A stretch of 64,000 bases of DNA from contig NZ_KB235948.1 of assembly GCF_000332335.1 (NCBI RefSeq), forward strand, positions 4,286,977 through 4,350,976, read 5' to 3'. Position numbers and translations under genes: made by a program. Origin of the DNA: Oscillatoria sp. PCC 10802. GTDB taxonomy: Bacteria; Cyanobacteriota; Cyanobacteriia; Cyanobacteriales; Oscillatoriaceae. Shown here piece by piece: positions 36,099-61,133 of this stretch (positions within the stretch are counted from its first letter, which is position 1; every line of letters begins with the position of its first letter). The notes under the pieces are model-generated. The model was not told the DNA's origin. It saw only the letters and a program-made list of their open reading frames with translations, and did no database searches.

Positions 36099-36420
36099 TC
36101 CCCTGGCAATTAGCTAGGTTCCAGGCGATTGGAAATCGCGGCTATACAAACGAAGCCCGCCTTCGCGGGCTAAGAGTATATTGAGACTCTCAAAATCTGC
36201 GCGGTTTTCCTCGTTGCGCAGTTTTCCTTGTTCCTTCGTCCCCTGGCAATTAGCTAGGTTCCAGGCGATTGGAAATCGCGGCTATACAAACGAAGCCCGC
36301 CTTCGCGGGCTAAGAGTATATTGAGACTCTCAAAATCTGCGCGGTTTTCCTCGTTGCGCAGTTTTCCTTGTTCCTTCGTCCCCTGGCAATTAGCTAGGTT
36401 CCTGGTGATTGGAAAGAGAC
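36099..36420. repeat. Tandem direct repeat, 140-bp period x2.3, made of MITE family B units (GATTGGAAATCGCGGCTATACAAACGAAGCCCGCCTTCGCGGGCTAAGAG)
   Basis: CCCTGGCAATTAGCTAGGTTCCAGGCGATTGGAAATCGCGGCTATACAAACGAAGCCCGCC... recurs at 36101, 36241 and 36381. Copies 1 and 2 are identical. Confidence 0.85.
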
Positions 36421-36534
36421 TGTTGGCGAATTGATTGGGGGTTTTACCCCACCCCCAACCCCTCCCCGTTAACGGGGAGGGGAGCTTTCTGGTAACCCTT
36501 GTTTTCCCTTTTCCTTGTCTTTTCTGAAAAAAAA

Positions 36535-36720
36535 ACCGCGCAGATATTGAGAGTCTCGATCCACTCTTAGCCCGCGAAGGCGGGCTTCGTCTGTATAGCC
36601 GCGATTTCAATCGCCAGGAACCTGGCCAACTAGCCAGTGGTCTAACCCCTCACGCATTCGCCAACAGCTTCTTTCCAATCGCCGGAGAACTAGCAAAATC
36701 GCCTGGGAACTAGCTGTAAC
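36535..36720. repeat. MITE family B, inverted copy plus fragments
   Basis: CGCGCAGATATTGAGAGTCTC...CTTAGCCCGCGAAGGCGGGCTTCGTCTGTATAGCCGCGATTTCAATCGCC is the reverse complement of the units at 36120-36230. It lies 40 bp from the 3' end of the Gly-zipper/ATPase gene. Confidence 0.8.
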
Positions 36721-36761: not shown

Positions 36762-39125
36762 TCATGCAAACCACCGGCGAATTAACTCCACCTGGAAGCG
36801 GAAACCGTCACCGGCATGTTCAATGAGTTCGCGGCGCAAAAGCAGGTTGAGGGTGCTGTCGAGGCTGTCGGGTTCCTCGCGGGAGAGAAATTGCCGGCTG
36901 GCTGTTGCGCGTTCCCCCTGTGCGGCGATGCAGCGCAATACGGCTAGCCCACCGGCATCTATTTGGTTGCGTTCGATGTCGGAGAAAAAGAAACTGCCAC
37001 TTTCTAAAGCACGCGGCACTGCAGCTTCTATATCGGCTAAGGTGGCAAACCGGCGCACTGAGGGATCTTGCTCGTTTTTGAGAATGACAATCTCGTTGCA
37101 GAGGAGTTGCACCAAAAAGGGGTGATGGCGGGTTAAATCTAGAATTCGCTGCACCGCATCGGGTTCATAGCGCAGGGTAAAATCTTTGATGGGGCGCTCT
37201 ATCAGCTGACGCGCTTCCGGTTCTCTCAGGTAGCTGATATGCACGACTTGCACGTTGATCAGGTAGCTCGCCCAGCGCTGAAATTCCTCTATCGTGTGGG
37301 AGCCGGCGAGCAGCACTTTGAAGCGGGGGCGGTGCTGGATTAAGTGGCGCAGCATTCCCAAAATTCGCTCTTCATCAAAGCGTCCTTTCCTGATGGCGCT
37401 GTCTAAAGCCTCGAATTCATCCAAGGCAAGCAGGGCGGTATTTTGTTCGAGTGTATTTTCGACTTCATCTAACCATTCGTCGAAGCCGGTGAAGGGATCT
37501 GCTGCTAGGGTTTCGCGGGGGAGGGGCGGCAGATTCAATTCGCTCTGTCGCTTGGCTGAGTTTATCATGCCTCTAGCGAGGTTGTAGAGAAAACCTGCCG
37601 GGTCACTCGCCTGTGATGCCGGTCCTTGCAAGTCCACAAACATGGGGATGATGCTGTTGGGGAGGAGGCGTCCGAGGTTGTTGAGAAGGGAGGTTTTGCC
37701 CATGCGCCGCTGACCGTAGAGTAGCAGAGGGGGGCGACGCCGGTCTAGCAGTAATTGCTCGATGCGCTTGCCAATCTCAGTGCCGCTGATATCAGCGGGT
37801 TTGACAAAGATTTCCTGCTGCTCATTCAGGGGGATGCCAGTGATGTAGGGGTTGTCAATCTCTTGGCGGAGTTCAGCTTCTTTTGCCAGTTCGGACACAC
37901 GCTCGGCAAGAATTTGATGCCAGCGGAGGGCGATGGGCTGAAACCGAACCGCGTATTTGTTGCTGCTGCGGGTTAAGTACCGCAACTGAGCTTCTAAACG
38001 GTCTGCAACAGCGCTGAGCGCTAGACGCTTGTTATAAGCACTTTCCTGATTGAGAGCAGCGTCTGCATCCTCGCTGATGCGACTGAAGATGCGGATCACT
38101 GCGCCGGCTGGGCTTTGCAGTTCGCTAATAACCAGACTGCGGTGAGCATTACGGATGGCTTCCACATCCGCACAGTTTTCTAAACTCCGTGCGTCCAGTT
38201 CAATTTGTGCCGCCTGTGCCGCCCAGCGCTGCCGGCTGGTACTCAGATATTCGATGGCAGCTTTTCCCTCAGCTGGGTTGCGCTCCATCACTAAAAGGAG
38301 ATGCTTGTCCAAGTCATATAGGGGAATGCGCTGCCACTCATCCCAAAAGGCAGAATGCCAGCGCAACAGACTGGGTTGAGTGCCTGTTCGTTTTTTGTCC
38401 AGTTGATACAGGAGGATATTCCATACGGTCAGGAAGGGATAGAGTACCGCTGGTAGCCACAAGTTTACAGTTACTCCCACGCCCGACGCCACGCCGAACG
38501 CCACGCCCCACGCCACGCCCGACGCCACGCCCAACGCCACGCCCAACGCCACGCCCAACGCCACGCCCCACGCCACGCCCCACGCCACGCCCCACGCCAC
38601 GCCCCACGCCACGCCCCACGCCACGCCCAACGCCACGCCCGACGCCACGGCCCACGCCACGGCGAACGCCACGCCCGACGCCACGGCCCACGCCACGGCG
38701 AACGCCACGCCGAACGCCACGCCGAACGCCACGCCCCACGCCACGCCCCACGCCACGGCCCACGCCACGCCGAACGCCACGCCCCACGCCACGCCGAACG
38801 CCACGGCCCACGCCACGACACGAAAAATTTTGTCAGCTGGCTCGCCCAACCCCCACAGCACCAATCCGAGAAGCAAGTTAGCCAGGACAGGGGAGAGCAG
38901 GTATCCTTGGAGCCGCAGCCGCCACAGAGCGAAGTTCCGCCAGCGCCCCTGTCTAATCAATAAAATCAGAGAGGAGTTAGGCTTCAAATCGGGGTCAATC
39001 CTGGTTATGTGATTGCGGAAAGCTGTGGGGCGGAAAAAAACCCAGAACATCAGTTGCAGCGTGCCCAGAATTAGGTTGGGGTGCTGCTCGGGTGCGTTGG
39101 TGTAGGCGTTGCGCGGGACGTTCAT
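36762..39125 (-). CDS. Membrane glycine-zipper tetrapeptide-repeat protein fused to C-terminal P-loop AAA+/STAND-like ATPase (novel architecture)
   Basis: 787 aa. Domain order:
- N-terminal conserved domain [39 protein letters not shown], shared with the paralog at 40861..42357.
- Hydrophobic helix [19 protein letters not shown].
- About 29 uninterrupted [G-V-A-(W/F/L/S)] repeats (aa ~141-259; about 35 units when flanking degenerate ones are counted).
- Conserved middle domain [67 protein letters not shown].
- ATPase with Walker [19 protein letters not shown] and Walker [12 protein letters not shown]. Confidence 0.8.
38476..38818. repeat. 12-bp tandem repeat (GCCACGCCCCAC / GCCACGCCGAAC variants), about 29 units, inside the CDS
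   Basis: Runs of identical consecutive units, for example cacgccccacgc at 38560-38620. On the minus strand it encodes [12 protein letters not shown]. Confidence 0.95.
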
Positions 39126-39141
39126 GCTAATTCTTTACCTG

Positions 39142-40233
39142 TCACTCCAACAAATGTTTGAAGCCCTGTATCTGCCGTAAACCTTCTTTGCGCCAGCCGT
39201 CTCCAGTTTCCCCATTTTCCAGACTAACCAATCGTTCTCGACAGAGGATTTGCAGCAGAAGTGGCCATCGTCCGCTCTGGGTGAGAATCCACTCTACATC
39301 CTCATCTGGGAAGGTCATCGGCGAACCGGCAATCAACTCACGCGCCTCTGCCTCTGTCAGCGGCCCCAAAGTCGCGCTATATCCGAAAATGTTGAAAAAC
39401 GGAGAACTGTGCTTGGTGTTGTGAGCCAGTTCAACCGGCGATTCCGGCGCTGCCAGCACAAACGCCAGATTTCCACCGGCATAATTGGTTGCCCAAGATC
39501 GCAAACACTCCCAGAACCCATCATCTAATTCTGGACAGCGTTGCAGTGCGACGCCTATCTCATCCAGCAGGATAACTGTGGGCGAGTGCAGCTTGTCGCC
39601 AACCGCATCCATGAAGCGATCCAAATCGCAGGGGTTGGGCACCGGCACACCCAGCTCCTTTAATATGTAGCTTAGCAACCCCTCCCGGCTGTGCCGGCGG
39701 GTATCTTGGAAGTCTGCGAAAATCCAGCGATAGCGTTGTGGATGCGGCAGCCAGTCGGACTTTTGGCCAGGGCGCAACTGTGCCGGTGGGGTGGTGGTGA
39801 TGTTTTTCAGGTAGTGCAGCAGGGAAGTCTTGCCGGTGCGCTTCTTGCCGATAATGGCGGCGTTTTGCAGGGGGTGGCGTTTCAGCAAGCCGAAAATGCG
39901 TTGAAGTTCGTAGTTGCGCCCAAAGAACTGGCGAGGGTAGGTGATGGGGTTGCCGGTGATGAAGGGCGAGAGTTCCTCAATGGGTGCCGGTGGGGGTTGT
40001 GGATCTTCCTCTTCTTTACAGGCTATTTCTTGCCAGTCAAACCCCAGTTTCTCGCTGAGTTCTACAAAATTCAGATAATCAACGGGTTGGCCACCGAGGA
40101 AGTTCTTGACGGTGGACAGAGATAGTCCTACCGCGTCAGCCAAAGCTGCCTGGCTGGCATGGCCCTTAAGCTTGAGGGCCGATTTTACTTCATTGATGTA
40201 CTCTGGGGCAACCTTGTTCGACCGCGACATCAC
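39142..40233 (-). CDS. HTH (XRE-type) DNA-binding domain fused to AAA+ ATPase domain
   Basis: 363 aa. N-terminal helix-turn-helix SQAALADAVGLSLSTVKNFLGG. Walker A NAAIIGKKRTGKTSLLHYL. Walker B PTVILLDEIGVAL. It ends 16 nt upstream of the Gly-zipper/ATPase gene on the same strand, so a two-gene operon is likely. Confidence 0.8.
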   Translation of the reverse strand: MMSRSNKVAPEYINEVKSALKLKGHASQAALADAVGLSLSTVKNFLGGQPVDYLNFVELSEKLGFDWQEIACKEEEDPQPPPAPIEELSPFITGNPITYPRQFFGRNYELQRIFGLLKRHPLQNAAIIGKKRTGKTSLLHYLKNITTTPPAQLRPGQKSDWLPHPQRYRWIFADFQDTRRHSREGLLSYILKELGVPVPNPCDLDRFMDAVGDKLHSPTVILLDEIGVALQRCPELDDGFWECLRSWATNYAGGNLAFVLAAPESPVELAHNTKHSSPFFNIFGYSATLGPLTEAEARELIAGSPMTFPDEDVEWILTQSGRWPLLLQILCRERLVSLENGETGDGWRKEGLRQIQGFKHLLE

Positions 40234-40386
40234 TGTTCCCAGGAAGGACTATCCGATTATAGAGCTTTTTTCCAGCCCAACCACAAGTCATCCCTAAGTC
40301 ATCTCAAAGTCACCTGTTTCCCACCCCGCATCTGAACCAGCGCTAGGTTTAGATGGAATTGTAGAGCTCAAACCGACTAAAACGCC

Positions 40387-40710
40387 ATGTTGAATGAAAC
40401 CCCAAACACCAACCAGACGTTACCCTCTACTTCGGAACCTGATGACGCTGTTCTGGACATGGAGCGAGAGTTCATGGAAGAACGTTTGCGTCAAGCTCGT
40501 CTCAGCTTCAACCTGACTCTCATACTGACAGCCGTGAGTGCTGTCATCAGTGTTGTGGGTGTCGGACTTTTGTTTGCGGGGAAAGTCCCGGAGGGAAGCG
40601 TCACGACAGCTGGGGGGTTGAGTTGCAACATTGTCAGCTTATTAAGGCTGACTAAGGAAACCAATGACCGGCTGGACAAAATGGCTCAGGAGTTCAAGGA
40701 CGAAGATTGA
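40387..40710 (+). CDS. Small membrane-anchored protein, hypothetical
   Basis: 107 aa. Acidic N-terminus, predicted amphipathic helix, one transmembrane segment LTLILTAVSAVISVVGVGLLFAG, short basic/acidic tail. Divergent from the HTH-ATPase gene and convergent with the paralog. Confidence 0.45.
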   Translation: MLNETPNTNQTLPSTSEPDDAVLDMEREFMEERLRQARLSFNLTLILTAVSAVISVVGVGLLFAGKVPEGSVTTAGGLSCNIVSLLRLTKETNDRLDKMAQEFKDED

Positions 40711-40860: not shown

Positions 40861-42357
40861 CTACAGGGGGCGCTGTGTGTCCGGTAGCATGTGGGGGCTA
40901 CCGGCTTGTTGGTCAATTTTTGCCGCCAATTCGCGCACACAACCGGCTACAATCTCATACCAGCGAAGAGCAATCGGGTAAAAACGAAGGGCGTCTTTAT
41001 CGCCGCAGGCGGTTAACTCCCGCAAGAAGTTATCCAGATTCTGCGCGACAGCGCTGAGGGCTAGCAGCCGATTAAAGGCACTCTCCTGACTCACACCGGC
41101 ATCTACTTCTTGGCTAATCTGGCTAAAGCTGATCAGCCAAACACCGGCAGGGCTTTCTGAATCACCGGCACCCAAGTTTTGGTGTGCGTTACTGATATCT
41201 CGCACGCCCCCACAATTTTCTAAACTCCTGGCGTCTATTTCAATCTGCGCTGCCTGCGCCGCCCAGCGCTGCCGGCTGGATTTCAGGTAGTTAATTGCGG
41301 CTTTTGCTTCATCGGGATTGCGGTCCAGTATCAAAATCAGGTGTTTGTCTAATTTGGGGAAAGGCAAAAACTGCCACTCATGCCAGAATGCGGAGTGCCG
41401 GTGCAGCAAACTGAATTGACTCCCGGCAAATCGTTTATCCAGTTGATAGAGGAAGATATTCCATACTGTTAATAAAGGATAAAATACTACCGGCAGCCAA
41501 TAGTTGACAGACACTCCCAGCGCGAACGCCACGCCCGAAGATACCCCCGACGACAGGCCAAATGCTAAGCCCAAGGTGACAATCGACGCCAAGCGCCACC
41601 CGACGCGCCACGCGATGTCGGGCGAGACGCCGGGAACTGCGCCCGACACCACGCCCAAGGTGACGCCCAAGGTGAAGCCGGACATCACGCCCAACACCAC
41701 GCCCAAGGCAAGACCGGATGTCAAGCCCGACACCACGCCGGATGACATGTGAAACGCCACGCCCAACCCAACGCCAAACACGACGCCCAACCCGACGCCC
41801 CACCCCACACTCCGCCTGGCGCTGAACCCCGGACTCAAGGTGACGCCCAGGACTGCGCCCGACGCCGCGCCCAACCCGACGCCCCACCCGACGCCCCACG
41901 CGAACCCCAAGGCCAAGTTGAGGGCCACGCCCCACGCCATAGCTAACCCGACGCCCAAGGTGACGGCTAGGGCCACGCCTGAGGCCACGCCCCACTGCAC
42001 GCCCGACGCCACCCACGATGTCAGCCCCCACCACACGCCGGACGCCACGCGCCAGAAAATGATTTCTTTTGATTGGCCGAGTGCGGACAGTATTAAACCC
42101 AGGATTGAAAATGCCAGGAAAGGTAATATTAAATATTCCTGGATTAGCAGTCGCCACAAAGCCCAGTTGCGCCACCGCAAACGGGTGCCCTGTTGCCGAT
42201 TTGGGTCTAAGGCGGGGTCAATGCGGGTGAGGTGGTTGCGCCATGCTGAGGGGCGGAAAAAAAGCCAGAACAGCAGTTGCAAACTGCCCAGAATAATGTT
42301 AGGATGTTGTTCGGGGGCATCTGTGTATGTGCTGGGTGGAATAGTGGGAGAGGTCAT
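40861..42357 (-). CDS. Paralog of Gly-zipper repeat membrane protein, lacking the ATPase domain
   Basis: Start taken at the ATG at 42357 (MTSPTIPPSTYTDAPEQHPNIILGSLQLLFWLFFRP, which aligns with the N-terminus of 36762..39125). Degenerate GVxxGVxx glycine-zipper region of about 190 aa. Middle domain shared almost motif for motif (YWLPVVFYPLLTVWNIFLYQLDKR...[37 protein letters not shown]). Ends before any Walker motifs. The upstream 126 nt of the track ORF lie in a MITE and are rejected. Confidence 0.7.
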   Translation of the reverse strand: MTSPTIPPSTYTDAPEQHPNIILGSLQLLFWLFFRPSAWRNHLTRIDPALDPNRQQGTRLRWRNWALWRLLIQEYLILPFLAFSILGLILSALGQSKEIIFWRVASGVWWGLTSWVASGVQWGVASGVALAVTLGVGLAMAWGVALNLALGFAWGVGWGVGLGAASGAVLGVTLSPGFSARRSVGWGVGLGVVFGVGLGVAFHMSSGVVSGLTSGLALGVVLGVMSGFTLGVTLGVVSGAVPGVSPDIAWRVGWRLASIVTLGLAFGLSSGVSSGVAFALGVSVNYWLPVVFYPLLTVWNIFLYQLDKRFAGSQFSLLHRHSAFWHEWQFLPFPKLDKHLILILDRNPDEAKAAINYLKSSRQRWAAQAAQIEIDARSLENCGGVRDISNAHQNLGAGDSESPAGVWLISFSQISQEVDAGVSQESAFNRLLALSAVAQNLDNFLRELTACGDKDALRFYPIALRWYEIVAGCVRELAAKIDQQAGSPHMLPDTQRPL

Positions 42358-42460
42358 GGATGCTTCTGGTTGATTCACCTTAATAATGAACCGCCAAGAC
42401 GCGCCAGCGGTTTCCCGTAGGGTAAATGCCAAGTACGCCAAGTTTTGCCTGGTTCCGGGC

Positions 42461-42692
42461 GATTGGAAATCGCAGCTATACAAACGAAGTCCGCCTGCGC
42501 GGACTAAGAGATTTTGCTAAGTTCCAGGCGAATGGAATTCGCGGTTCCAGGCGAATGGAATTCGCGGCTATACAAACCAAGTCCGCCTACCCAACGGGCA
42601 CGGGCTTCGCCCAACGCGGACTAAGAAAAGAGGGAAATTCTTGAAACCCGCGCAGGCGGGTTTCGTCTGTATAGTTGCGGTTTCAACCGCCG
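42461..42692. repeat. MITE family B composite copy (direct 30-bp duplication plus inverted terminus)
   Basis: GGTTCCGGGCGATTGGAAATCGCAGCTATACAAACGAAGTCCGCCTGCGCGGACTAAGAG...GTTCCAGGCGAATGGAATTCGCG x2 ... CGCAGGCGGGTTTCGTCTGTATAGTTGCGGTTTCAACCGCC. It flanks the 5' side of the Gly-zipper paralog. Confidence 0.8.
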
Positions 42693-42707: not shown

Positions 42708-44567
42708 CTAAGCGCTGACAAAGGAAACGGCGACGCGAAATCCGAAGCGGTTATTCCGGATTTCTGGCACAACCCTGCAGCGGAAAGCGGAACGGCAATC
42801 CCTGGGGTTGCTGAACCAAGAACCCCCGCGCAGCAACCGGCGATTTTGATTGCCACCGGCATCCCAAACACCCCCATCCGCTAGCGCACCGGCATAATTA
42901 TCATGCCACGGATCGGCGCACCACTCCCAGACATTCCCGTGGGTGTCGTACAAACCAAAAGTGTTGGCTGGAAAACTCCCCACATCTGCTGTCTGTTTGC
43001 TATAGGTTCCTTTGGGTTCAGAAGCGTAAGTATAGTTGCCGTGATAATTAGCTATTTCAGTTGTAACTGTCTCGCCAAAGTGGAAGGGCGCAGTGCGGGT
43101 GTCCTCGCCGGCAGACGCACGACAGGCATATTCCCACTCAGCTTCGCTGGGTAAGCGGTAGTTGCGCCCGGTTACTTGGGAGAGTCGCGCACAAAATTCG
43201 ACAGCATCGTACCAGGATACATTCTCCACCGGCCTGTTTGCGCCTTTGAAATAAGACGGATCGGGATTTAAATCCAGGTACACCTTGGGTAGGGCTGCGA
43301 CAGCTTTCCACTGCGCCTGTGTTACGGCATATTTCCCCATAAAAAAGGGCTGCACTTTTACCAGGTGCTGCGGGCTTTCTTCATTATATCGCCCTGACTC
43401 AGTTTTTGGGGAACCCATCAGGAAAGTTCCCCCTGGAATCGACACCATTTCCAAGGGCACCCCACTGCCAGCGTCTTGGGCAAAGTATTCCGCTTGCCGG
43501 CGCGTGCGGCTGATTTCTCGCCCGTAAGTGTCTACGGTAATAGCGTCGAAGGCAAACTGCTGCAAGGGTGTTTTGCCTGAGGGGGGAGAGGTGCTAACCG
43601 AAAGGGGAACTCCCGACGTTAGCAATCCAATCCCGGCAAAACCGGCAGCTTTAAAAAGTTGCCGGCGTGTCGGGGAATCCTCTTTTATCAGGGAGGAAAC
43701 CGCTTGCAGCGCTTCCACTGCTGACGGGTAGCGCCGGCGGGAGTCACGGCGCACCATTGTGTCTAAAATCTTGGCCAGCTGGGGGCTAACTCGCACTTTG
43801 TTGCGCCAGATAATGTCACCCGTCTGGGGATTTTCTGGCAGTCGCCGGGGAAAGATGCCGGTGAGTGCTTGAATTGCTGTCATTCCCAGAGCGTACACAT
43901 CGCTGCTAAACTGGGGGTTGCCCTTCGCTTGCTCATTTGGCATGTATCCGGGGGTGCCAATCCCAACTGTTAAATTCGCCTGAGTTGGCGCACTCACCAC
44001 TTGGGTGCAGACTTGCTTAATTGCGGCAAAGTCTATCAAGACAATTTTACCATCTTGGCGGCGTCGGATTAAGTTTGCCGGTTTGATATCGCGGTGGATC
44101 GCACCCTCCTGATGCGCGTGAGAGAGGACTGTCAGCACATCCAGCAAAAAGGCAATCACCCGTTCTTCCGTCCACCGGCATCCCGGTTTGATTTCCGCGC
44201 ACAAGTCCTCGCCTTCTATAAAGTCTCGCACGAGATAGAACTCTTGATTCTCCTCGAAGTGAGCTAGGACTCGGGGAATTTGGTCGTGTTCGCCCAATTT
44301 GTGGAGGAGTTTAGCTTCCGTGTCAAATAGGGTTCTGGCAATCTCCAACGCGGACAGATTGTTGGACAGGGGTTTGAGCTGTTTGACGGCGCAGGTAGGA
44401 CTATCTGGCAACTGGGTGTCAGAGGCGAGGAAAGTTGACCCAAATCCCCCGCCTCCCAAGTGTTTGACGATCTTATATCGCCCCGCAATGGTTGTTCCCA
44501 ACATGTGTTTCATGCAGTTCAATGGCAAGTTTCGCTCTAGGATACAGCCTTTGCGCACAAATGTCAA
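42708..44567 (-). CDS. Ser/Thr protein kinase fused to C-terminal formylglycine-generating-enzyme (FGE/sulfatase-modifying factor) domain
   Basis: 619 aa. Kinase subdomains GGGGFGSTFLA, VKQL, HRDIKPANLI, DFAAIK, GTPGYMPNEQ. C-terminal FGE fold (YAVTQAQWKAV...NVSWYDAVEFCARLS...RLPSEAEWEYACRA...RGGSWFSNPRDCRSAFR). Confidence 0.85.
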   Translation of the reverse strand: MTFVRKGCILERNLPLNCMKHMLGTTIAGRYKIVKHLGGGGFGSTFLASDTQLPDSPTCAVKQLKPLSNNLSALEIARTLFDTEAKLLHKLGEHDQIPRVLAHFEENQEFYLVRDFIEGEDLCAEIKPGCRWTEERVIAFLLDVLTVLSHAHQEGAIHRDIKPANLIRRRQDGKIVLIDFAAIKQVCTQVVSAPTQANLTVGIGTPGYMPNEQAKGNPQFSSDVYALGMTAIQALTGIFPRRLPENPQTGDIIWRNKVRVSPQLAKILDTMVRRDSRRRYPSAVEALQAVSSLIKEDSPTRRQLFKAAGFAGIGLLTSGVPLSVSTSPPSGKTPLQQFAFDAITVDTYGREISRTRRQAEYFAQDAGSGVPLEMVSIPGGTFLMGSPKTESGRYNEESPQHLVKVQPFFMGKYAVTQAQWKAVAALPKVYLDLNPDPSYFKGANRPVENVSWYDAVEFCARLSQVTGRNYRLPSEAEWEYACRASAGEDTRTAPFHFGETVTTEIANYHGNYTYASEPKGTYSKQTADVGSFPANTFGLYDTHGNVWEWCADPWHDNYAGALADGGVWDAGGNQNRRLLRGGSWFSNPRDCRSAFRCRVVPEIRNNRFGFRVAVSFVSA

Positions 44568-44730: not shown

Positions 44731-46386
44731 CTACCGGCTCTCAATGCTCAAATCCACATCTGCCGGTGTAAAATATAACTGGGCGCTGCCCTCACTCAAG
44801 GCGGCAATGGCATCCTGTTTCCGCAAAGTATTAAAAATCGCCAGCTTCTCCGATGCTGGCATGCCATTCCCCAACCCGTCAAAGAACGCCCTGACGCGAA
44901 TTGCCTCCGCCTCACCGGCAGTTACCGCCTCGGTTTGCGCGTGCTGCCGGCGCAAGTCCAGCAGCTGTCCCTTCAGCCGCTCAACTTCAATCTCCCCCTC
45001 TATCTCCTTAAGTTTAACATCATTATCGCCCTCCTGTTTCTGCAGCCGGTTCAGCCGGTTTGTCGTCTCCTGGATAATCTCTAGCAAAATCCGCTGCGTG
45101 TCCGGATCTTTGCAAGCGACTGAGCGCACTTCCACCGCATGAAGCGCCACCCCACGCTCGGCATAAAAGCTGTCCTCCACGCCCAGCACCGCCTGTCTGA
45201 CTATGGCATTAAACCCCGCCAGAAATCTTTCCAGCGATACCTGCGATACGGACTGAATAATCAGGCTGCGAGCGTGGGCGCAAATCGCGCCGGTGGTATC
45301 ATCTGTCGCCTGAATCATGGCAGCTACATCCACAATCTGCCAGAAAAACGTCAAGCCGATAATCAATTCTACATTATCCTGCGTTCGCGCTTCAAACTCG
45401 TACCACATGAATTTGGGTCGCCCGTCAATGTGGGTGAAGATGAGGTTTTTCTCGTTTTTGTGCAGCCCGCTGGCCCACCGGAATTCCACCAGCTCCTCAT
45501 ACGGCTGCAAAAAGAAAGACCGTTCATCACCTGTTCCCCGTTTTATGCTATAATCTCCAAAGCGGTCTTTGACGACGACCGTTTCGTGATTCTCCAGCAA
45601 AATGCGCTGGCGCACTTCTACGATTTCTTGATTCGCCTCCGGACAGAAAACCTGCGTCTCTGTTATCAATCGTAGCGTGCCAGTTTGCGTGTCCCGCACC
45701 AGGACTGCAGTGTGTTCGTCAATATTGACCCCTTCCCCGATGCTGCTTAAAATATCTTCGATAATCTCTTCCGCAGGAGTCAGGTAGAAACTCCTCTCGC
45801 CGCGCTCCACGCGAATCATGCCGGTGCTTTTATCAATCACCTTGACATACTGATTTTGCTGCAGTAAAATAGGAGTGCGGAGTTCGACAATTTCCTGATT
45901 GGCAGCTGGAATGAACACTTGGGGGTCGGAAATCAGCTGCAGTTGGCCGGTGGAAATATCTCGCACCAGCACCGCTGTTCCCTCATCAATATTGACACCC
46001 TCCCGCACCGGCTCTAGAATCTGTTCAGTGGGGTTGAGACAGACACTGCGATCTCCTCTTTCCACCCGAATCGCGCCGGTGCGCTTGTCAATTAGCCGGA
46101 TGTACTGGTTGCTTTTCAGGGGGATGGCGGAAAGCTGTTCCAGGATTTCCTCACTCGCCGCCGGGAAGTACAGCTTGGGGCCAAATTCGTTGCGCAACTC
46201 GCCGGTGAGGGTGTCGCGCAGGCGCAGGTATTCGGTTGGCCCAAGGGTTTTGGCCTTGCGGCGCTGCACCCGCCACCAGGGCTGGGAGTAAAACACAGCG
46301 GGCCCATTCACTGTCCACCGGCGCGTGAAGCCCTCGACGAGCAGCTGTTCGTCTTCTTTGAGATAATATATCCAGGGCAAAAACAT
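44731..46386 (-). CDS. Major vault protein (MVP) homolog: MVP repeats, band-7-like shoulder and cap-helix
   Basis: 551 aa. At least 5 MVP repeats of about 45 aa (YIRLIDKRTGAIRVERGDRSVCLNPTEQILE, VKVIDKSTGMIRVERGERSFYLTPAEEIIEDI, KRGTGDERSFFLQPYEELVE; compare eukaryotic MVP KGEKSFFLQPGEQLE). Shoulder region GAICAHARSLIIQSVSQVSLERFLAGFNAIVRQAVLG (compare [37 protein letters not shown]). Then a coiled-coil cap-helix. Confidence 0.8.
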   Translation of the reverse strand: MFLPWIYYLKEDEQLLVEGFTRRWTVNGPAVFYSQPWWRVQRRKAKTLGPTEYLRLRDTLTGELRNEFGPKLYFPAASEEILEQLSAIPLKSNQYIRLIDKRTGAIRVERGDRSVCLNPTEQILEPVREGVNIDEGTAVLVRDISTGQLQLISDPQVFIPAANQEIVELRTPILLQQNQYVKVIDKSTGMIRVERGERSFYLTPAEEIIEDILSSIGEGVNIDEHTAVLVRDTQTGTLRLITETQVFCPEANQEIVEVRQRILLENHETVVVKDRFGDYSIKRGTGDERSFFLQPYEELVEFRWASGLHKNEKNLIFTHIDGRPKFMWYEFEARTQDNVELIIGLTFFWQIVDVAAMIQATDDTTGAICAHARSLIIQSVSQVSLERFLAGFNAIVRQAVLGVEDSFYAERGVALHAVEVRSVACKDPDTQRILLEIIQETTNRLNRLQKQEGDNDVKLKEIEGEIEVERLKGQLLDLRRQHAQTEAVTAGEAEAIRVRAFFDGLGNGMPASEKLAIFNTLRKQDAIAALSEGSAQLYFTPADVDLSIESR

Positions 46387-49287: not shown

Positions 49288-50613
49288 CTACCTAGCGCAG
49301 CGAAAACCGACAAAAAGCTGCCTCACCCAAGGGTGATACCAGTTGCGGAAGCTGCCTCGCAGCGCCCTGGGGCGAGTCGCCCAGCTCCCCCCTTTGAGAA
49401 CCCGGTGCTGCCGGTCAAAATACACCTGGGAATAACCGGCATAGGGGTAGAACTCAAACCCCTGATAGCCCTCAAACCAGCTGGATGTCCACTCCCAGAC
49501 ATTCCCCAGAGCGTCGCACACGCCCCAAAAGCTCGCCCCTGCGGGGAAAGCACCGGCAGGCGTCGTCTGAGCGTACAGATTGTCGTGATTGCACCGGCTG
49601 GCGTCGGGAGGATCTTCCCCCCAGGGGTAGGTGCGCCGGCATCGAGCACTCGCATCCCAGCAGACGGCTTTTTCCCACTCCGCCTCGCTGGGCAACCGCT
49701 TGCCGGCAAACCGCGCAAAGGCATCCGCTTCATACCAGCTCACCCCGCACACGGGATGGCTGTCAAAACACGAGTCACCCGACCAATATAAAGGCTGCCT
49801 GACCGAATTCTTTTGCACCCACTCCCAGCCCTCGCTTGACCAAAAGCTGGAATTGTGATATCCTCCCGCCTCGATAAATTGCCGGTACTGCCCGCAAGTT
49901 ACAGGATAGCGGTCAATCCAGTAGGTGTCCAAATAGAGCCGGTGAGCCGGTCGCTCATTATCAAAAGCGTCGGTGGAGTCAGAACCCCGCTCAAATTCCC
50001 CAGCAGGAATTTCAATCATTTCAGCTAGGGCACCGGGCGCTAGGCATGGGGCATCGGGTGCGAGCACTCTCCCCTGTTGCGGAGAAATCCCCTGCCAGCC
50101 GACTAGCCTGGTCAGGAATGTTACCGTTTCGCAGTGCTGGCTTTCGTGCTGGACAATAAAGCTCCAGAGGCGCTGTTGCTCCCCCACCGGCGCGATTTCC
50201 AGATAGTCCAGCACTTTTGAGCGCACCGTGTCCAGATAGTGGCGCAGCTCACCTAGCGAAGGCAGGTACACCCGTTCCGCTTTCGGCAAACCATTCGCTG
50301 GGAACAGCCTGTGATATTCTGGAAACACCGGCGGATAGCCGGCGGTGCGCTGCAGCAGCCACAGCGCTTCGGTGTAGGCGATGTGCCCCAAATGCCAGCC
50401 AGGGGGGCTGAAGTCGGGATGGGCTTGCTGGCTGAAGGTGGCGCGATCCATACCTTCAAACAGTTTTAGGGTGGCGGTGCGGCACTCCTGCAAGGCGTTG
50501 CGAATGGCGTCTCTAGAGTTGATAGATTTGGATTTCAAGGTTCTCTCCCACACTGATAATACTCTGTTCTGGGCAGCGATTCCAGCTGCCGGCGAACAAA
50601 GGTTCAGAAGCAA
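49288..50613 (-). CDS. egtB: Hercynine oxygenase / sulfoxide synthase EgtB (DinB-like N-domain plus FGE-like C-domain)
   Basis: 441 aa. DinB_2 region (ECRTATLKLFEGMDRATFSQQAHPDFSPPGWHLGHIAYTEALWLL, His triad). FGE-sulfatase fold (GDSCFDSHPVCGVSWYEADAFARFAGKRLPSEAEWEKA...KGGSWATRPRALRGSFRNW). The first ~100 nt of the track ORF overlap egtC, so the true start is probably an internal GTG/TTG near 50540. Confidence 0.85.
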   Translation of the reverse strand: MLLNLCSPAAGIAAQNRVLSVWERTLKSKSINSRDAIRNALQECRTATLKLFEGMDRATFSQQAHPDFSPPGWHLGHIAYTEALWLLQRTAGYPPVFPEYHRLFPANGLPKAERVYLPSLGELRHYLDTVRSKVLDYLEIAPVGEQQRLWSFIVQHESQHCETVTFLTRLVGWQGISPQQGRVLAPDAPCLAPGALAEMIEIPAGEFERGSDSTDAFDNERPAHRLYLDTYWIDRYPVTCGQYRQFIEAGGYHNSSFWSSEGWEWVQKNSVRQPLYWSGDSCFDSHPVCGVSWYEADAFARFAGKRLPSEAEWEKAVCWDASARCRRTYPWGEDPPDASRCNHDNLYAQTTPAGAFPAGASFWGVCDALGNVWEWTSSWFEGYQGFEFYPYAGYSQVYFDRQHRVLKGGSWATRPRALRGSFRNWYHPWVRQLFVGFRCAR

Positions 50614-60991: not shown

Positions 60992-61133
60992 TTCCGGGCG
61001 ATTAGCTACTTTTCGGGCGATTGGAAATCGCGGCTATACAAACAAAGTCCGCCTGCGCGGACTTAAGAGAAGAGCGGCAGCGTAAAACCCCTTGTCTTGC
61101 CGGTTTTATCTGTATAGCTGGGGTTTCAATCGC
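60992..61133. repeat. MITE family B copy
   Basis: TTTCCGGGCGATTAGCTACTTTTCGGGCGATTGGAAATCGCGGCTATACAAACAAAGTCCGCCTGCGCGGACTTAAGAG ... CCGGTTTTATCTGTATAGCTGGGGTTTCAATCGC (inverted terminus). Confidence 0.8.

Follow-up and report, generated by a model that had tools for sequence, protein, structure and literature searches.

What does a DNA-binding domain do at the head of an ATPase whose neighbouring gene encodes a membrane-linked ATPase? The question is raised by gene A, which lies in a 64,000-nucleotide (nt) stretch of DNA from Oscillatoria sp. PCC 10802 (a strain that NCBI also names Kamptonema formosum); this whole stretch is referred to as the window. An original prediction, made from the letters of the window alone, had described A as an XRE-type helix-turn-helix (HTH) domain fused to an AAA+ ATPase, and as a likely regulator co-transcribed with gene B, which encodes a glycine-zipper ATPase. 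We read A, with moderate confidence, as the output subunit, binding DNA and switched by ATP, of a conserved three-gene module linked to the membrane and arranged in the order small membrane gene, divergent promoter with a repeat array phased at 11 nt, A, and B. Comparison among loci brings out, at the level of sequence, the linkage of the genes, the paralogy of the two ATPases, the swapping of heads, and the association of the HTH with the array. We infer that A would regulate its own expression and serve as the arm through which an undescribed membrane conflict module of paired ATPases gives a transcriptional output, with DNA binding, A–B assembly, and the trigger as predicted elements.

Genes A and B are linked and encode paralogous ATPases

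Gene A and its partner occupy adjacent positions on one strand:

39142..40233, minus strand: gene A (HTH-ATPase), 363 amino acids (aa) if read from GTG 40233
39126..39141, minus strand: A–B spacer of 16 nt, too short for a promoter plus a terminator
36762..39125, minus strand: gene B, 787 aa, the glycine-zipper ATPase partner

The stop codon of A (TGA) occupies 39144–39142 and the next ATG, that of B, lies at 39125; the predicted distance of 16 nt to 36762..39125 is exact (39126–39141). The three motifs on which the original prediction was built, QAALADAVGLSLSTVKNFL, GKKRTGKTSLL, and VILLDEIG, all lie in the open reading frame (ORF) 39142..40233. The true start of A is probably ATG 40230, giving a product of 362 aa, since the 362-aa product is 100% identical to RefSeq WP_017718320.1 ("ATP-binding protein", Oscillatoria sp. 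PCC 10802) and since the N termini of A orthologues read M[ASG]RSL. The gene is real and under selection, as judged from 1438 homologues at E ≤ 1e-3, an identity of 68–92% among the best 120, and the presence of relatives in 259 GTDB species genomes. The module occurs in many genomes of Nostoc, Calothrix, Microcoleus, and Oscillatoria. For comparison we took 80 A loci from GTDB species genomes (A identity 67–92%); wherever their titles name a taxon it is a filamentous cyanobacterium, bar one bin labelled "Actinomycetota".

The two genes stay together. Specifically, B is the next gene on the same strand in 61 of the 62 informative cyanobacterial loci (those with at least 5.5 kb of downstream sequence), and it adjoins A in all 8 informative loci that have other heads or lie outside cyanobacteria. 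The original prediction would have fallen had the genes failed to co-occur in other genomes, and on this count it stands. Its description of the pair as two different ATPases in an unusual operon does not: the arrangement is a conserved and widespread module, and A aligns with B at 24% identity over 345 aa (E 9e-5). A and B have in common P[FY]ITGxP, a GxxRxGKTSLL Walker A motif, LDE, and PxLxQxLC, and their sequences identify them as paralogous ATPases. Walker A and B motifs are intact in both, and GQRRMGKT is present in 53 of 53 full-length B proteins.

From the 16-nt gap, A and B are predicted to be co-transcribed; no terminator-like site or hairpin was found on the minus strand between them. 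Elsewhere the A–B gap ranges from 20 nt to about 3 kb and can contain genes for PIN with an antitoxin-like ORF of about 72 aa, GIY-YIG, HNH, HicB, or PD-(D/E)xK proteins (inserts are present in L002, L008, L029, L031, L033, L056, L061, L063, and L090), so the tight coupling seen in the window is not universal, though linkage is kept. The gap acts as a hot spot where small mobile genes, or genes of toxin-antitoxin type, have been inserted. In one locus (L061) it also contains a tandem array of repeats of about 137 nt.

From its N terminus onward, the B protein consists of a conserved segment that contains transmembrane helices, the hypervariable (G-V-A-x)n glycine-zipper, a helical middle domain that is again conserved, and ATPase-B, which is extended at its C-terminal end. 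The transmembrane region is hypervariable in length and in sequence. In particular, in the 43 B proteins that could be anchored on an HSAFW motif, the anchor lies a constant 524 aa or so from the end, and the part N-terminal to it varies from 164 to 420 aa owing to the (G-V-A-x)n repeats.

The ATPase of A belongs to a broad ORC/STAND-like class

The elements of the ATPase are as follows:

39145..39969, minus strand: ATPase-A module, about aa 89–363, with a SPFITGxPI motif, a P-loop domain, and a helical lid
39823..39849, minus strand: Walker A GKKRTGKTS, aa 129–137, with G129, R132, and G134-K135-T136-S137 invariant in 24 orthologues
39553..39576, minus strand: Walker B VILLDEIG, aa 220–227, with D224 and E225 invariant in 24 orthologues

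The conserved SPFITGxPI motif opens the module. Both Walker motifs are intact, with their key residues invariant, which bears out the claim of a complete P-loop ATPase. The AAA+ label holds in the broad sense of a P-loop ATPase and does not extend to classical AAA (PF00004), for which neither A of the window nor any of the 24 orthologues gives a match, and no arginine finger was identified. Pfam matches of ATPase-A are weak and spread over AAA_22, AAA_16, ATPase_2, AAA_35, TniB, and nSTAND1. The nSTAND1 profile (PF20703) scores 13.6 bits with A and 24.5 bits with B, both below its cut-off of 27.1, and is matched weakly by 22 of the 24 A orthologues (best E 1.7e-4). A ends at residue 363, past an all-helical lid, with no room for a winged-helix or a repeat/sensor domain, and thus lacks the STAND layout of a winged helix followed by a C-terminal repeat/sensor. 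B has about 100 further C-terminal residues within the nSTAND1 profile and has no repeat sensor.

A search of NCBIfam with A gave no match, and neither the single-sequence search nor the profile search of PDB sequences turned up a solved relative. The best folds found by Foldseek for the ATPase are the PF01637-type archaeal ATPase 2qen, ORC/Cdc6, DnaA, the plant NLR resistosome NRC4, and TnsC, with template-modelling (TM) scores that are low (0.14–0.35) because the AlphaFold model of A is poor outside the HTH; these predicted-structure matches would support only a broad ORC/STAND-like class. The description that suits A best is that of a minimal ORC/STAND-like ATPase headed by a Cro/C1 domain.

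The same matches raise the reading that A serves a mobile element, either as a transposition ATPase like TniB or TnsC or as a Rep/ORC-like initiator that acts on the iterons of an integrated element. In its favour are weak TniB matches in 20 of 24 orthologues (best E 2.3e-6), the naming of some NCBI records as "TniB family", the resemblance of the fold to ORC, DnaA, and TnsC, and the iteron-like direct repeats upstream of A that are described below. Set against these, A of the window scores 15.4 bits with TniB where the cut-off is 22.4, its constant partner is a membrane ATPase in place of TnsB or TniQ, plasmids and phages yielded no full-length copy, and no transposase, integrase, or replication gene lies beside A in the window or in the loci examined. 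We consider a mobile-element function highly improbable, and the TniB-transposon and replication-initiator readings were rejected on the absence of their partner genes beside A.

The N-terminal head is exchanged on a constant ATPase

An exhaustive HMMER search of 1.84 billion cluster representatives returned 2500 relatives of A at E ≤ 1e-3, of which 258 were at E ≤ 1e-30, and head classes were counted in the best 150 representatives (clusters at 50% identity). In these 150 the match nearly always covers residues 85–363 or so and lies at the C terminus of proteins of 300–1300 aa. The C-terminal 275 aa or so are constant, and the N termini belong to many unrelated classes:

XRE-type HTH: about 57 of 150
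OmpR-type winged helix: 11 of 150
CHAT: 9 of 150
TCAD9 and/or Ser/Thr kinase: 8 of 150
SARP/BTAD: 8 of 150
EAD1-TIR: 6 of 150
ParA-like: 2 of 150
Other: many singletons among the 150

Loci with exchanged heads, or from outside cyanobacteria, have the following arrangements:

L081, TIR-headed A: B with EAD1 in place of the transmembrane part
L082 and L083, CHAT-headed A: B adjacent
L085, ParA-like-headed A: B adjacent, genes overlapping
L086, kinase-headed A: B adjacent, divergent
L088, OmpR-headed A: B adjacent
L089, XRE-headed A, 64% GC: B adjacent
L090, SARP-headed A: B adjacent, with a PDDEXK_3 gene between

Since heads vary on a constant ATPase-A, with B adjacent wherever flanks are available, the HTH of the window fills the output slot of a general two-ATPase module. 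In the TIR-headed locus the A–B pair (L081 4235–7736) is inserted between two permease genes of an ordinary ABC sugar-transporter operon, which suggests that the two-gene pair moves as a cassette. The original prediction had associated HTH-NTPase proteins with conflict systems, and this association is strengthened by the CHAT, EAD1-TIR, TCAD9, and kinase heads, by the CyanoTRADDas_TM neighbour described below, and by the pair inside the transporter operon.

The head of A is classed as a Cro/C1-type HTH and is shared with unrelated plasmid proteins

The head was delimited from the AlphaFold model and from the Pfam matches of orthologues:

40018..40212, minus strand: Cro/C1-type helix-turn-helix, about aa 8–72

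The AlphaFold model has an N-terminal domain of five helices (residues 10–22, 28–35, 39–46, 53–62, and 67–70), with predicted local distance difference test (pLDDT) values of 86–89 over 10-residue blocks spanning residues 11–70. The domain is compact and five-helical, as is a Cro/C1 domain, with helices 2 and 3 (aa 28–35 and 39–46) forming the HTH, and it is followed by a Pro/Glu-rich linker (residues 73–88). Orthologues match HTH_3 (9 of 24, best E 2.8e-6), HTH_19 (6 of 24), HTH_26 (2 of 24), and Phage_CI_repr (2 of 24) at E < 0.01. A profile search of PDB sequences gave a weak match to an MBF1-like HTH (E 0.28), and Pfam gave no XRE-family match for A of the window at E ≤ 0.1. The XRE label therefore holds at the level of the family, on the strength of the orthologue matches and the predicted fold; the protein of the window taken alone stays under the Pfam cut-offs.

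The same head is found on other bodies. Specifically, a tblastn search of a plasmid collection showed that A residues 2–71 (36–51% identity) also head unrelated plasmid proteins, with bodies that include NB-ARC, AAA-like/AAA_35, WD40, TIR, TPR, DUF4384, and DUF1822. A tblastn search with the HTH found no other copy in the window or in the flanks of the loci, and a search with the 76-aa HTH alone against a set of 5.8 billion proteins collected 6 candidates and was uninformative.

A repeat array phased at 11 nt accompanies the head

The region between A and the divergent small gene upstream is 153 nt long and contains the proposed operator for the A HTH:

40286..40312, minus strand: direct-repeat array GTGACTT / ATGACTT / ATGACTT with 11-nt spacing, 53–79 nt upstream of GTG 40233

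In the 64-kb window this array is the sole one of its kind. In the upstream regions of 35 dereplicated A genes, TGACTT is enriched 12.7-fold and GTTGAC 11.9-fold, and the spacing between motifs has a sharp maximum at 11 nt (38 of about 120 intervals) over a flat background. Triple arrays number 27 in 1.44 Mb, and 16 of these lie within 260 nt upstream of A. In-phase TGACT arrays precede about 22 of the 35 dereplicated A genes; the consensus unit is RGYTGASTT plus two more bases, present in 2–9 in-phase copies that end 27–176 nt before the start codon.

The plasmid genes that have the same HTH on unrelated bodies provide an independent test, in which the 250 nt upstream of 10 such genes were scanned for at least one in-phase motif pair. 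The frequencies of such a pair are:

Upstream of plasmid HTH genes: 8 of 10
Random 250-nt windows: 2.6%
AT-rich windows: 2.3%
Upstream of other ORFs of at least 200 aa: 0.8% (5 of 648)
Dinucleotide-preserving shuffles: mean 0.24 of 10, maximum 2

No array was found upstream of A genes with CHAT, TIR, ParA-like, or kinase heads. Because arrays occur with the same HTH on other bodies and not with those heads, the array appears, from sequence, to accompany the DNA-binding head and not the ATPase. Three direct repeats with 11-nt spacing also lie just upstream of the start codon in the high-GC XRE-headed locus and in the SARP-headed locus (L089 and L090). In three further loci (L013, L050, and L060), triple TGACT arrays with 11-nt spacing lie within the A–B gap, about 30–230 nt past the A stop codon on the opposite strand, and in two of these (L050 and L060) A has no array upstream.

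The simplest reading is that the head would bind the array and that the array is probably A's own control site. Phasing by one helical turn and a head-to-tail arrangement of repeats would fit an oligomer held together by the ATPase better than a dimer that binds a palindrome. The recognition helix (STVK[NS]F) and the TGA core are both nearly invariant, so that there is no usable signal of covariation between helix and repeat. The conserved array in the promoter region, with its 11-nt phase, lends support to the role of regulator proposed in the original prediction.

A different role for the head would be that of a homotypic-interaction adaptor, like effector-associated domains, or of a sensor of invading DNA, in either case linking A to proteins with the same head. 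That a domain of about 70 aa heads NB-ARC, AAA_35, WD40, TIR, TPR, DUF4384, and DUF1822 proteins is as expected of an adaptor, and the head sits in the slot that EAD1 and effector domains occupy in relatives. However, the fold and the Pfam matches are those of DNA-binding Cro/C1 domains, and the frequency of TGACT arrays upstream of such genes and of A genes, against 1–3% in controls, favours recognition of the protein's own promoter. We hold the adaptor or sensor role to be quite unlikely.

The promoter region is shared with a divergent gene for a small membrane protein

The third gene of the module and the putative promoter elements are:

40387..40710, plus strand: gene for a small membrane protein, 107 aa, with a CyanoTRADDas_TM two-helix transmembrane domain (Pfam E 1.5e-18); WP_017718321.1
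40256..40261, minus strand: TATAAT, a −10-like hexamer read from sequence, of a putative A–B promoter
40256–40266 and 40358–40368, no strand assigned: two direct copies of the 11-nt element ATT(A/G)TAGAGCT, 102 nt apart, bracketing the array

RefSeq names the small product "TRADD-N-associated membrane domain-containing protein". A gene for a small membrane protein lies divergently upstream of A in 68 of the 80 loci and is of one of three types: CyanoTRADDas_TM (24 loci), an unrelated one-helix protein of about 75 aa (39 loci), and a protein of about 50 aa (5 loci). The first two types never occur together in one locus, and the third is met only in loci that lack both. Small divergent ORFs also lie upstream of A in the L089 and L090 loci, where no transmembrane segment was obvious.

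The region 17 nt upstream of the TATAAT hexamer matches the −35 consensus poorly and abuts the array; owing to this weak −35, the hexamer is not listed by a consensus promoter scan. The first copy of ATT(A/G)TAGAGCT contains the TATAAT, the A-sense strand of both copies reads AGCTCTAYAAT and is −10-like, and the two copies may be tandem promoters. Several other loci have a CTCTACAAT motif in the corresponding region. The array abuts the −35 region here and lies downstream of a −10-like element in the SARP-headed locus, a position that would fit repression slightly better than activation.

This position also agrees with the reading of the locus as a toxin-antitoxin-like pair, in which B, possibly with the small membrane protein, is a pore-forming toxin, A is repressor and neutraliser, and the module is mainly self-stabilising. 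An HTH autorepressor gene upstream of a gene for a toxic membrane protein is a common toxin-antitoxin layout, repeats that abut or overlap the −35 region (or, in the SARP-headed locus, lie downstream of the putative −10) fit repression, and glycine zippers are typical of membrane-perturbing proteins. However, a simple toxin-antitoxin pair has no need of the intact, conserved ATPase modules of about 275–350 aa in A and B, inserts of up to 3 kb are tolerated between the two genes, and the head of A is replaced in relatives by enzymes unable to repress. We judge a toxin-antitoxin-like pair to be improbable.

Conservation, selection, and the case for a housekeeping role

Several observations weigh against the reading of A as the DNA-binding, ATP-switched output subunit of a conflict module. 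With respect to the head, no HTH family exceeds its Pfam cut-off in A of the window (HTH_24 comes to 20.4 bits against 21.9), and the AlphaFold pLDDT is below 50 for residues 75–136, which contain the linker and the P-loop region. With respect to the array, the repeat core resembles the σ70 −35 hexamer TTGACA, the association of HTH and array could arise from a cassette of promoter plus 5′ exon moving as one unit, and two of the plasmid upstream regions (L094 and L096) are visibly homologous, which reduces the effective sample of 10 to about 9. Binding of A to DNA or to B, and hydrolysis of ATP by A, are predictions. With respect to a defence role, plasmid and phage searches found no full-length copy of A, and the family is conserved to an extent unusual for a defence gene (67–73% identity across cyanobacterial orders). 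The best matches in PADLOC-DB v2 were PDC-S27 for A and PDC-S01 for B (both E 1.6e-3, over about 25–40 residues around the P-loop), and neither is significant.

The pattern of substitution in the window copy also departs from that of the family. Its nearest relative is the copy of O. princeps RMCB-10 (L001 10001–11089). In comparison with this copy, and on small counts, the ratio of nonsynonymous to synonymous substitution rates (dN/dS) is 1.46 for the HTH and 0.57 for the ATPase, against family medians of 0.31 and 0.17 (245 close pairs), and 0.72 for the whole of A; for B it is 0.16 in the ATPase and 0.97 in the middle domain. Substitutions in A are distributed evenly across the three codon positions, and relaxed or diversifying selection may be acting on A in the window. 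Phylogenetic footprinting of the intergenic region against O. princeps was unhelpful, since identity between the two genomes is about 95% whichever codon position is considered.

The unusual conservation and the lack of full-length plasmid or phage copies in our searches make a housekeeping role a serious rival, although we think it rather unlikely. A and B would in that case form a signalling pair, with A as a transcription factor that depends on ATP, much like MalT or the SARP/LAL regulators, and B as a membrane sensor or anti-activator, for the control of membrane homeostasis, stress, or development in filamentous cyanobacteria. Such a role accords with the 67–73% identity of A from Oscillatoriales to Nostocales and the ATPase dN/dS of about 0.17, with the chromosomal location of the gene, with the absence of a significant PADLOC match, and with the DNA-binding nature of most heads in the family (XRE about 57, OmpR 11, and SARP 8 of 150). 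On the other side, the same chassis has CHAT, EAD1-TIR, and TCAD9 heads, which are typical of conflict systems; one pair lies inside an ABC transporter operon; the A–B gap is a favoured site of toxin-antitoxin and nuclease genes; B is hypervariable in its transmembrane region; the small partner gene has a TRADD-N-associated membrane domain; and the genomic site of A differs from genus to genus.

A proposed mechanism for the three-gene module

In the mechanism that we propose for A as output subunit of a conflict module, A would bind the repeats head to tail as an ATP-dependent oligomer and would thereby autoregulate the A–B operon, with the divergent small membrane gene probably under the same control. 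The paralogous ATPase modules of A and B would serve for their co-assembly. B, anchored by its hypervariable glycine-zipper, would sense an event at the membrane (phage attack, a toxin, or a damaged neighbouring cell, for example), and this signal would, through nucleotide-dependent A–B assembly, alter the occupancy of the operator by A, by either sequestering or activating A. More small membrane protein and more B would then lead to membrane damage or depolarisation, with an abortive or cell-death type of response that protects the filament as the result. Relatives with CHAT, TIR, or kinase heads would use the same chassis with an enzymatic rather than a transcriptional output.

A more ambitious version of this proposal is possible, though on balance doubtful. 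In it, the module would be a widespread, undescribed three-component link between membrane and DNA, in which a hetero-oligomer of paralogous ATPases has B as sensor and A as swappable output; the HTH output would be the cooperative binding of 11-bp repeats that switches on a small membrane-toxin gene; and HTH plus array would be a portable self-regulating cassette found on many NLR-like, TIR, and other conflict proteins.

If true, the proposed mechanism would represent an architecture new among the immune and cell-death systems that multicellular bacteria build around NTPases, with sensing and output split across two paralogous ATPases and with an output arm that is transcriptional rather than enzymatic. 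It also provides a concrete candidate operator, RGYTGASTT every 11 bp, that seems to accompany one HTH family on many NLR-like, TIR, and related genes and that would offer an experimental handle on the silencing and switching-on of dangerous genes. Some members of Nostoc, Calothrix, Microcoleus, and Oscillatoria are genetically tractable, so that these predictions are testable.

Other features of the neighbourhood

A further gene related to B lies beyond the small membrane gene:

40861..42357, minus strand: B′, a truncated B paralogue (ORF to 42483, probable start 42357), with the N-terminal transmembrane part, the glycine-zipper, and the middle domain, and with no ATPase

B′ is 58–59% identical to B in the conserved parts and stops exactly where the ATPase would be expected to start; no remnant of a second B ATPase was found in the window. 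B′ is common only to the genome of the window and O. princeps, and could be a truncated duplicate or remnant, or an accessory subunit without an ATPase.

The neighbourhood includes a kinase-FGE-sulfatase gene and a Uma2 gene. In particular, 42708..44567 (minus strand) encodes a Ser/Thr kinase fused to an FGE-sulfatase domain (C-type-lectin fold), an architecture that is a known target of diversity-generating retroelements, and O. princeps has two tandem copies of this gene; 49288..50613 (minus strand) also encodes an FGE-like domain. No template repeat of a diversity-generating retroelement for these FGE-domain genes was found in the window. Beside the cluster of conflict genes, 44731..46386 (minus strand) encodes a bacterial protein of 551 aa that is like Major Vault Protein (MVP), with matches to Vault_3 (the Major Vault Protein repeat), MVP_shoulder, and SPFH/Band_7.

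A dispersed repeat of 60–140 nt (36099–36415, 36532–36640, 42451–42588, and 60994–61133) lies to either side of the block of B, A, small gene, and B′ and is present again at 61 kb. It takes the form of a 140-nt unit present 2.3 times at 98% identity plus an inverted copy, and copies also lie beside A and B in a Kamptonema locus (L058). The repeat may be an element like a miniature inverted-repeat transposable element or a recombination hot spot. A search of Rfam with the 36–43 kb region found nothing.

Comparison with known systems

The regulators MalT, AfsR/SARP-LAL, and GutR combine a DNA-binding domain with an ORC/STAND-like NTPase, and nucleotide-driven oligomerisation controls their binding to promoters; SARP and OmpR-type domains bind direct repeats with a period of about 11 bp beside the −35 and −10 elements. 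A resembles MalT and the SARP-LAL regulators in having a DNA-binding head on an ORC/STAND-like NTPase, and A proteins with SARP and OmpR heads exist, the SARP-headed one with three repeats. A differs from them in having no TPR or sensor domain and no winged helix after the lid, in having a head of the Cro/C1 HTH type, which is normally a dimer that binds palindromes, and in that sensing would come in trans, from a paralogous membrane ATPase.

The nearest folds to A are ORC/Cdc6, DnaA, and the archaeal PF01637 ATPases (2qen), and such AAA+-like proteins assemble on short DNA repeat arrays; A differs from them in that its sequence similarity is not significant, the TM score is about 0.3, and there is no replication context. 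ParR of plasmid R1 binds cooperatively, on one face of the DNA, to arrays of direct repeats of about 11 bp around its own promoter (parC) and autoregulates. A likewise has a direct-repeat array with a spacing of about 11 nt upstream of its own gene. Unlike A, ParR is a small ribbon-helix-helix protein without an ATPase that acts in plasmid segregation, and the two have no homology.

The closest published parallel is the nSTAND2 operon of Kaur, Iyer, Burroughs, and Aravind (eLife 2021, PMC8195603), a mobile two-gene operon in which both products have a STAND NTPase core and are thought to form a hetero-multimer, with one NTPase having eroded NTP-binding motifs and with GT4 or HEPN as the usual fusions. 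As in that operon, A and B are adjacent genes for paralogous STAND-like NTPases. Unlike the nSTAND2 pair, A and B both have an intact set of Walker motifs; A is fused to HTH, CHAT, TIR, or kinase heads, and the fusion on B is a transmembrane glycine zipper or EAD1. Pfam gave no match of A or B to nSTAND2 (PF20702) at E ≤ 0.1, and none to GT4 or HEPN. No small membrane gene or repeat array was found in the covered part of the nSTAND2 description (PMC8195603).

The A/B pair, the small membrane gene, and the array have no description in the covered parts of Kaur et al. 2020 (PMC7159879) and 2021 (PMC8195603), and no description of the pair, of the small membrane gene, or of the operator was found in the 2026 Nature STAND survey or in PADLOC. 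Searches of the literature on the Npun2340/MNS clade, on glycine zipper plus NTPase, and on TCAD9 plus nSTAND1 likewise turned up no account of the pair.

The broader class to which the module compares is that of the NTP-dependent conflict systems of multicellular bacteria (Kaur et al., eLife 2020, PMC7159879; 2021, PMC8195603). A differs from the STAND conflict proteins of that class (PMC7159879; PMC8195603) in having no C-terminal sensor repeats, and A and B both score under the nSTAND1 cut-off. The module resembles these systems (PMC7159879; PMC8195603) in its enrichment in filamentous cyanobacteria, in its variable effector slot on a constant NTPase core, and in a vocabulary of domains that comprises EAD1, TCAD9, CHAT, TIR, kinase, CyanoTRADDas_TM, and sub-threshold nSTAND1; this shared vocabulary assigns the module to the same class.

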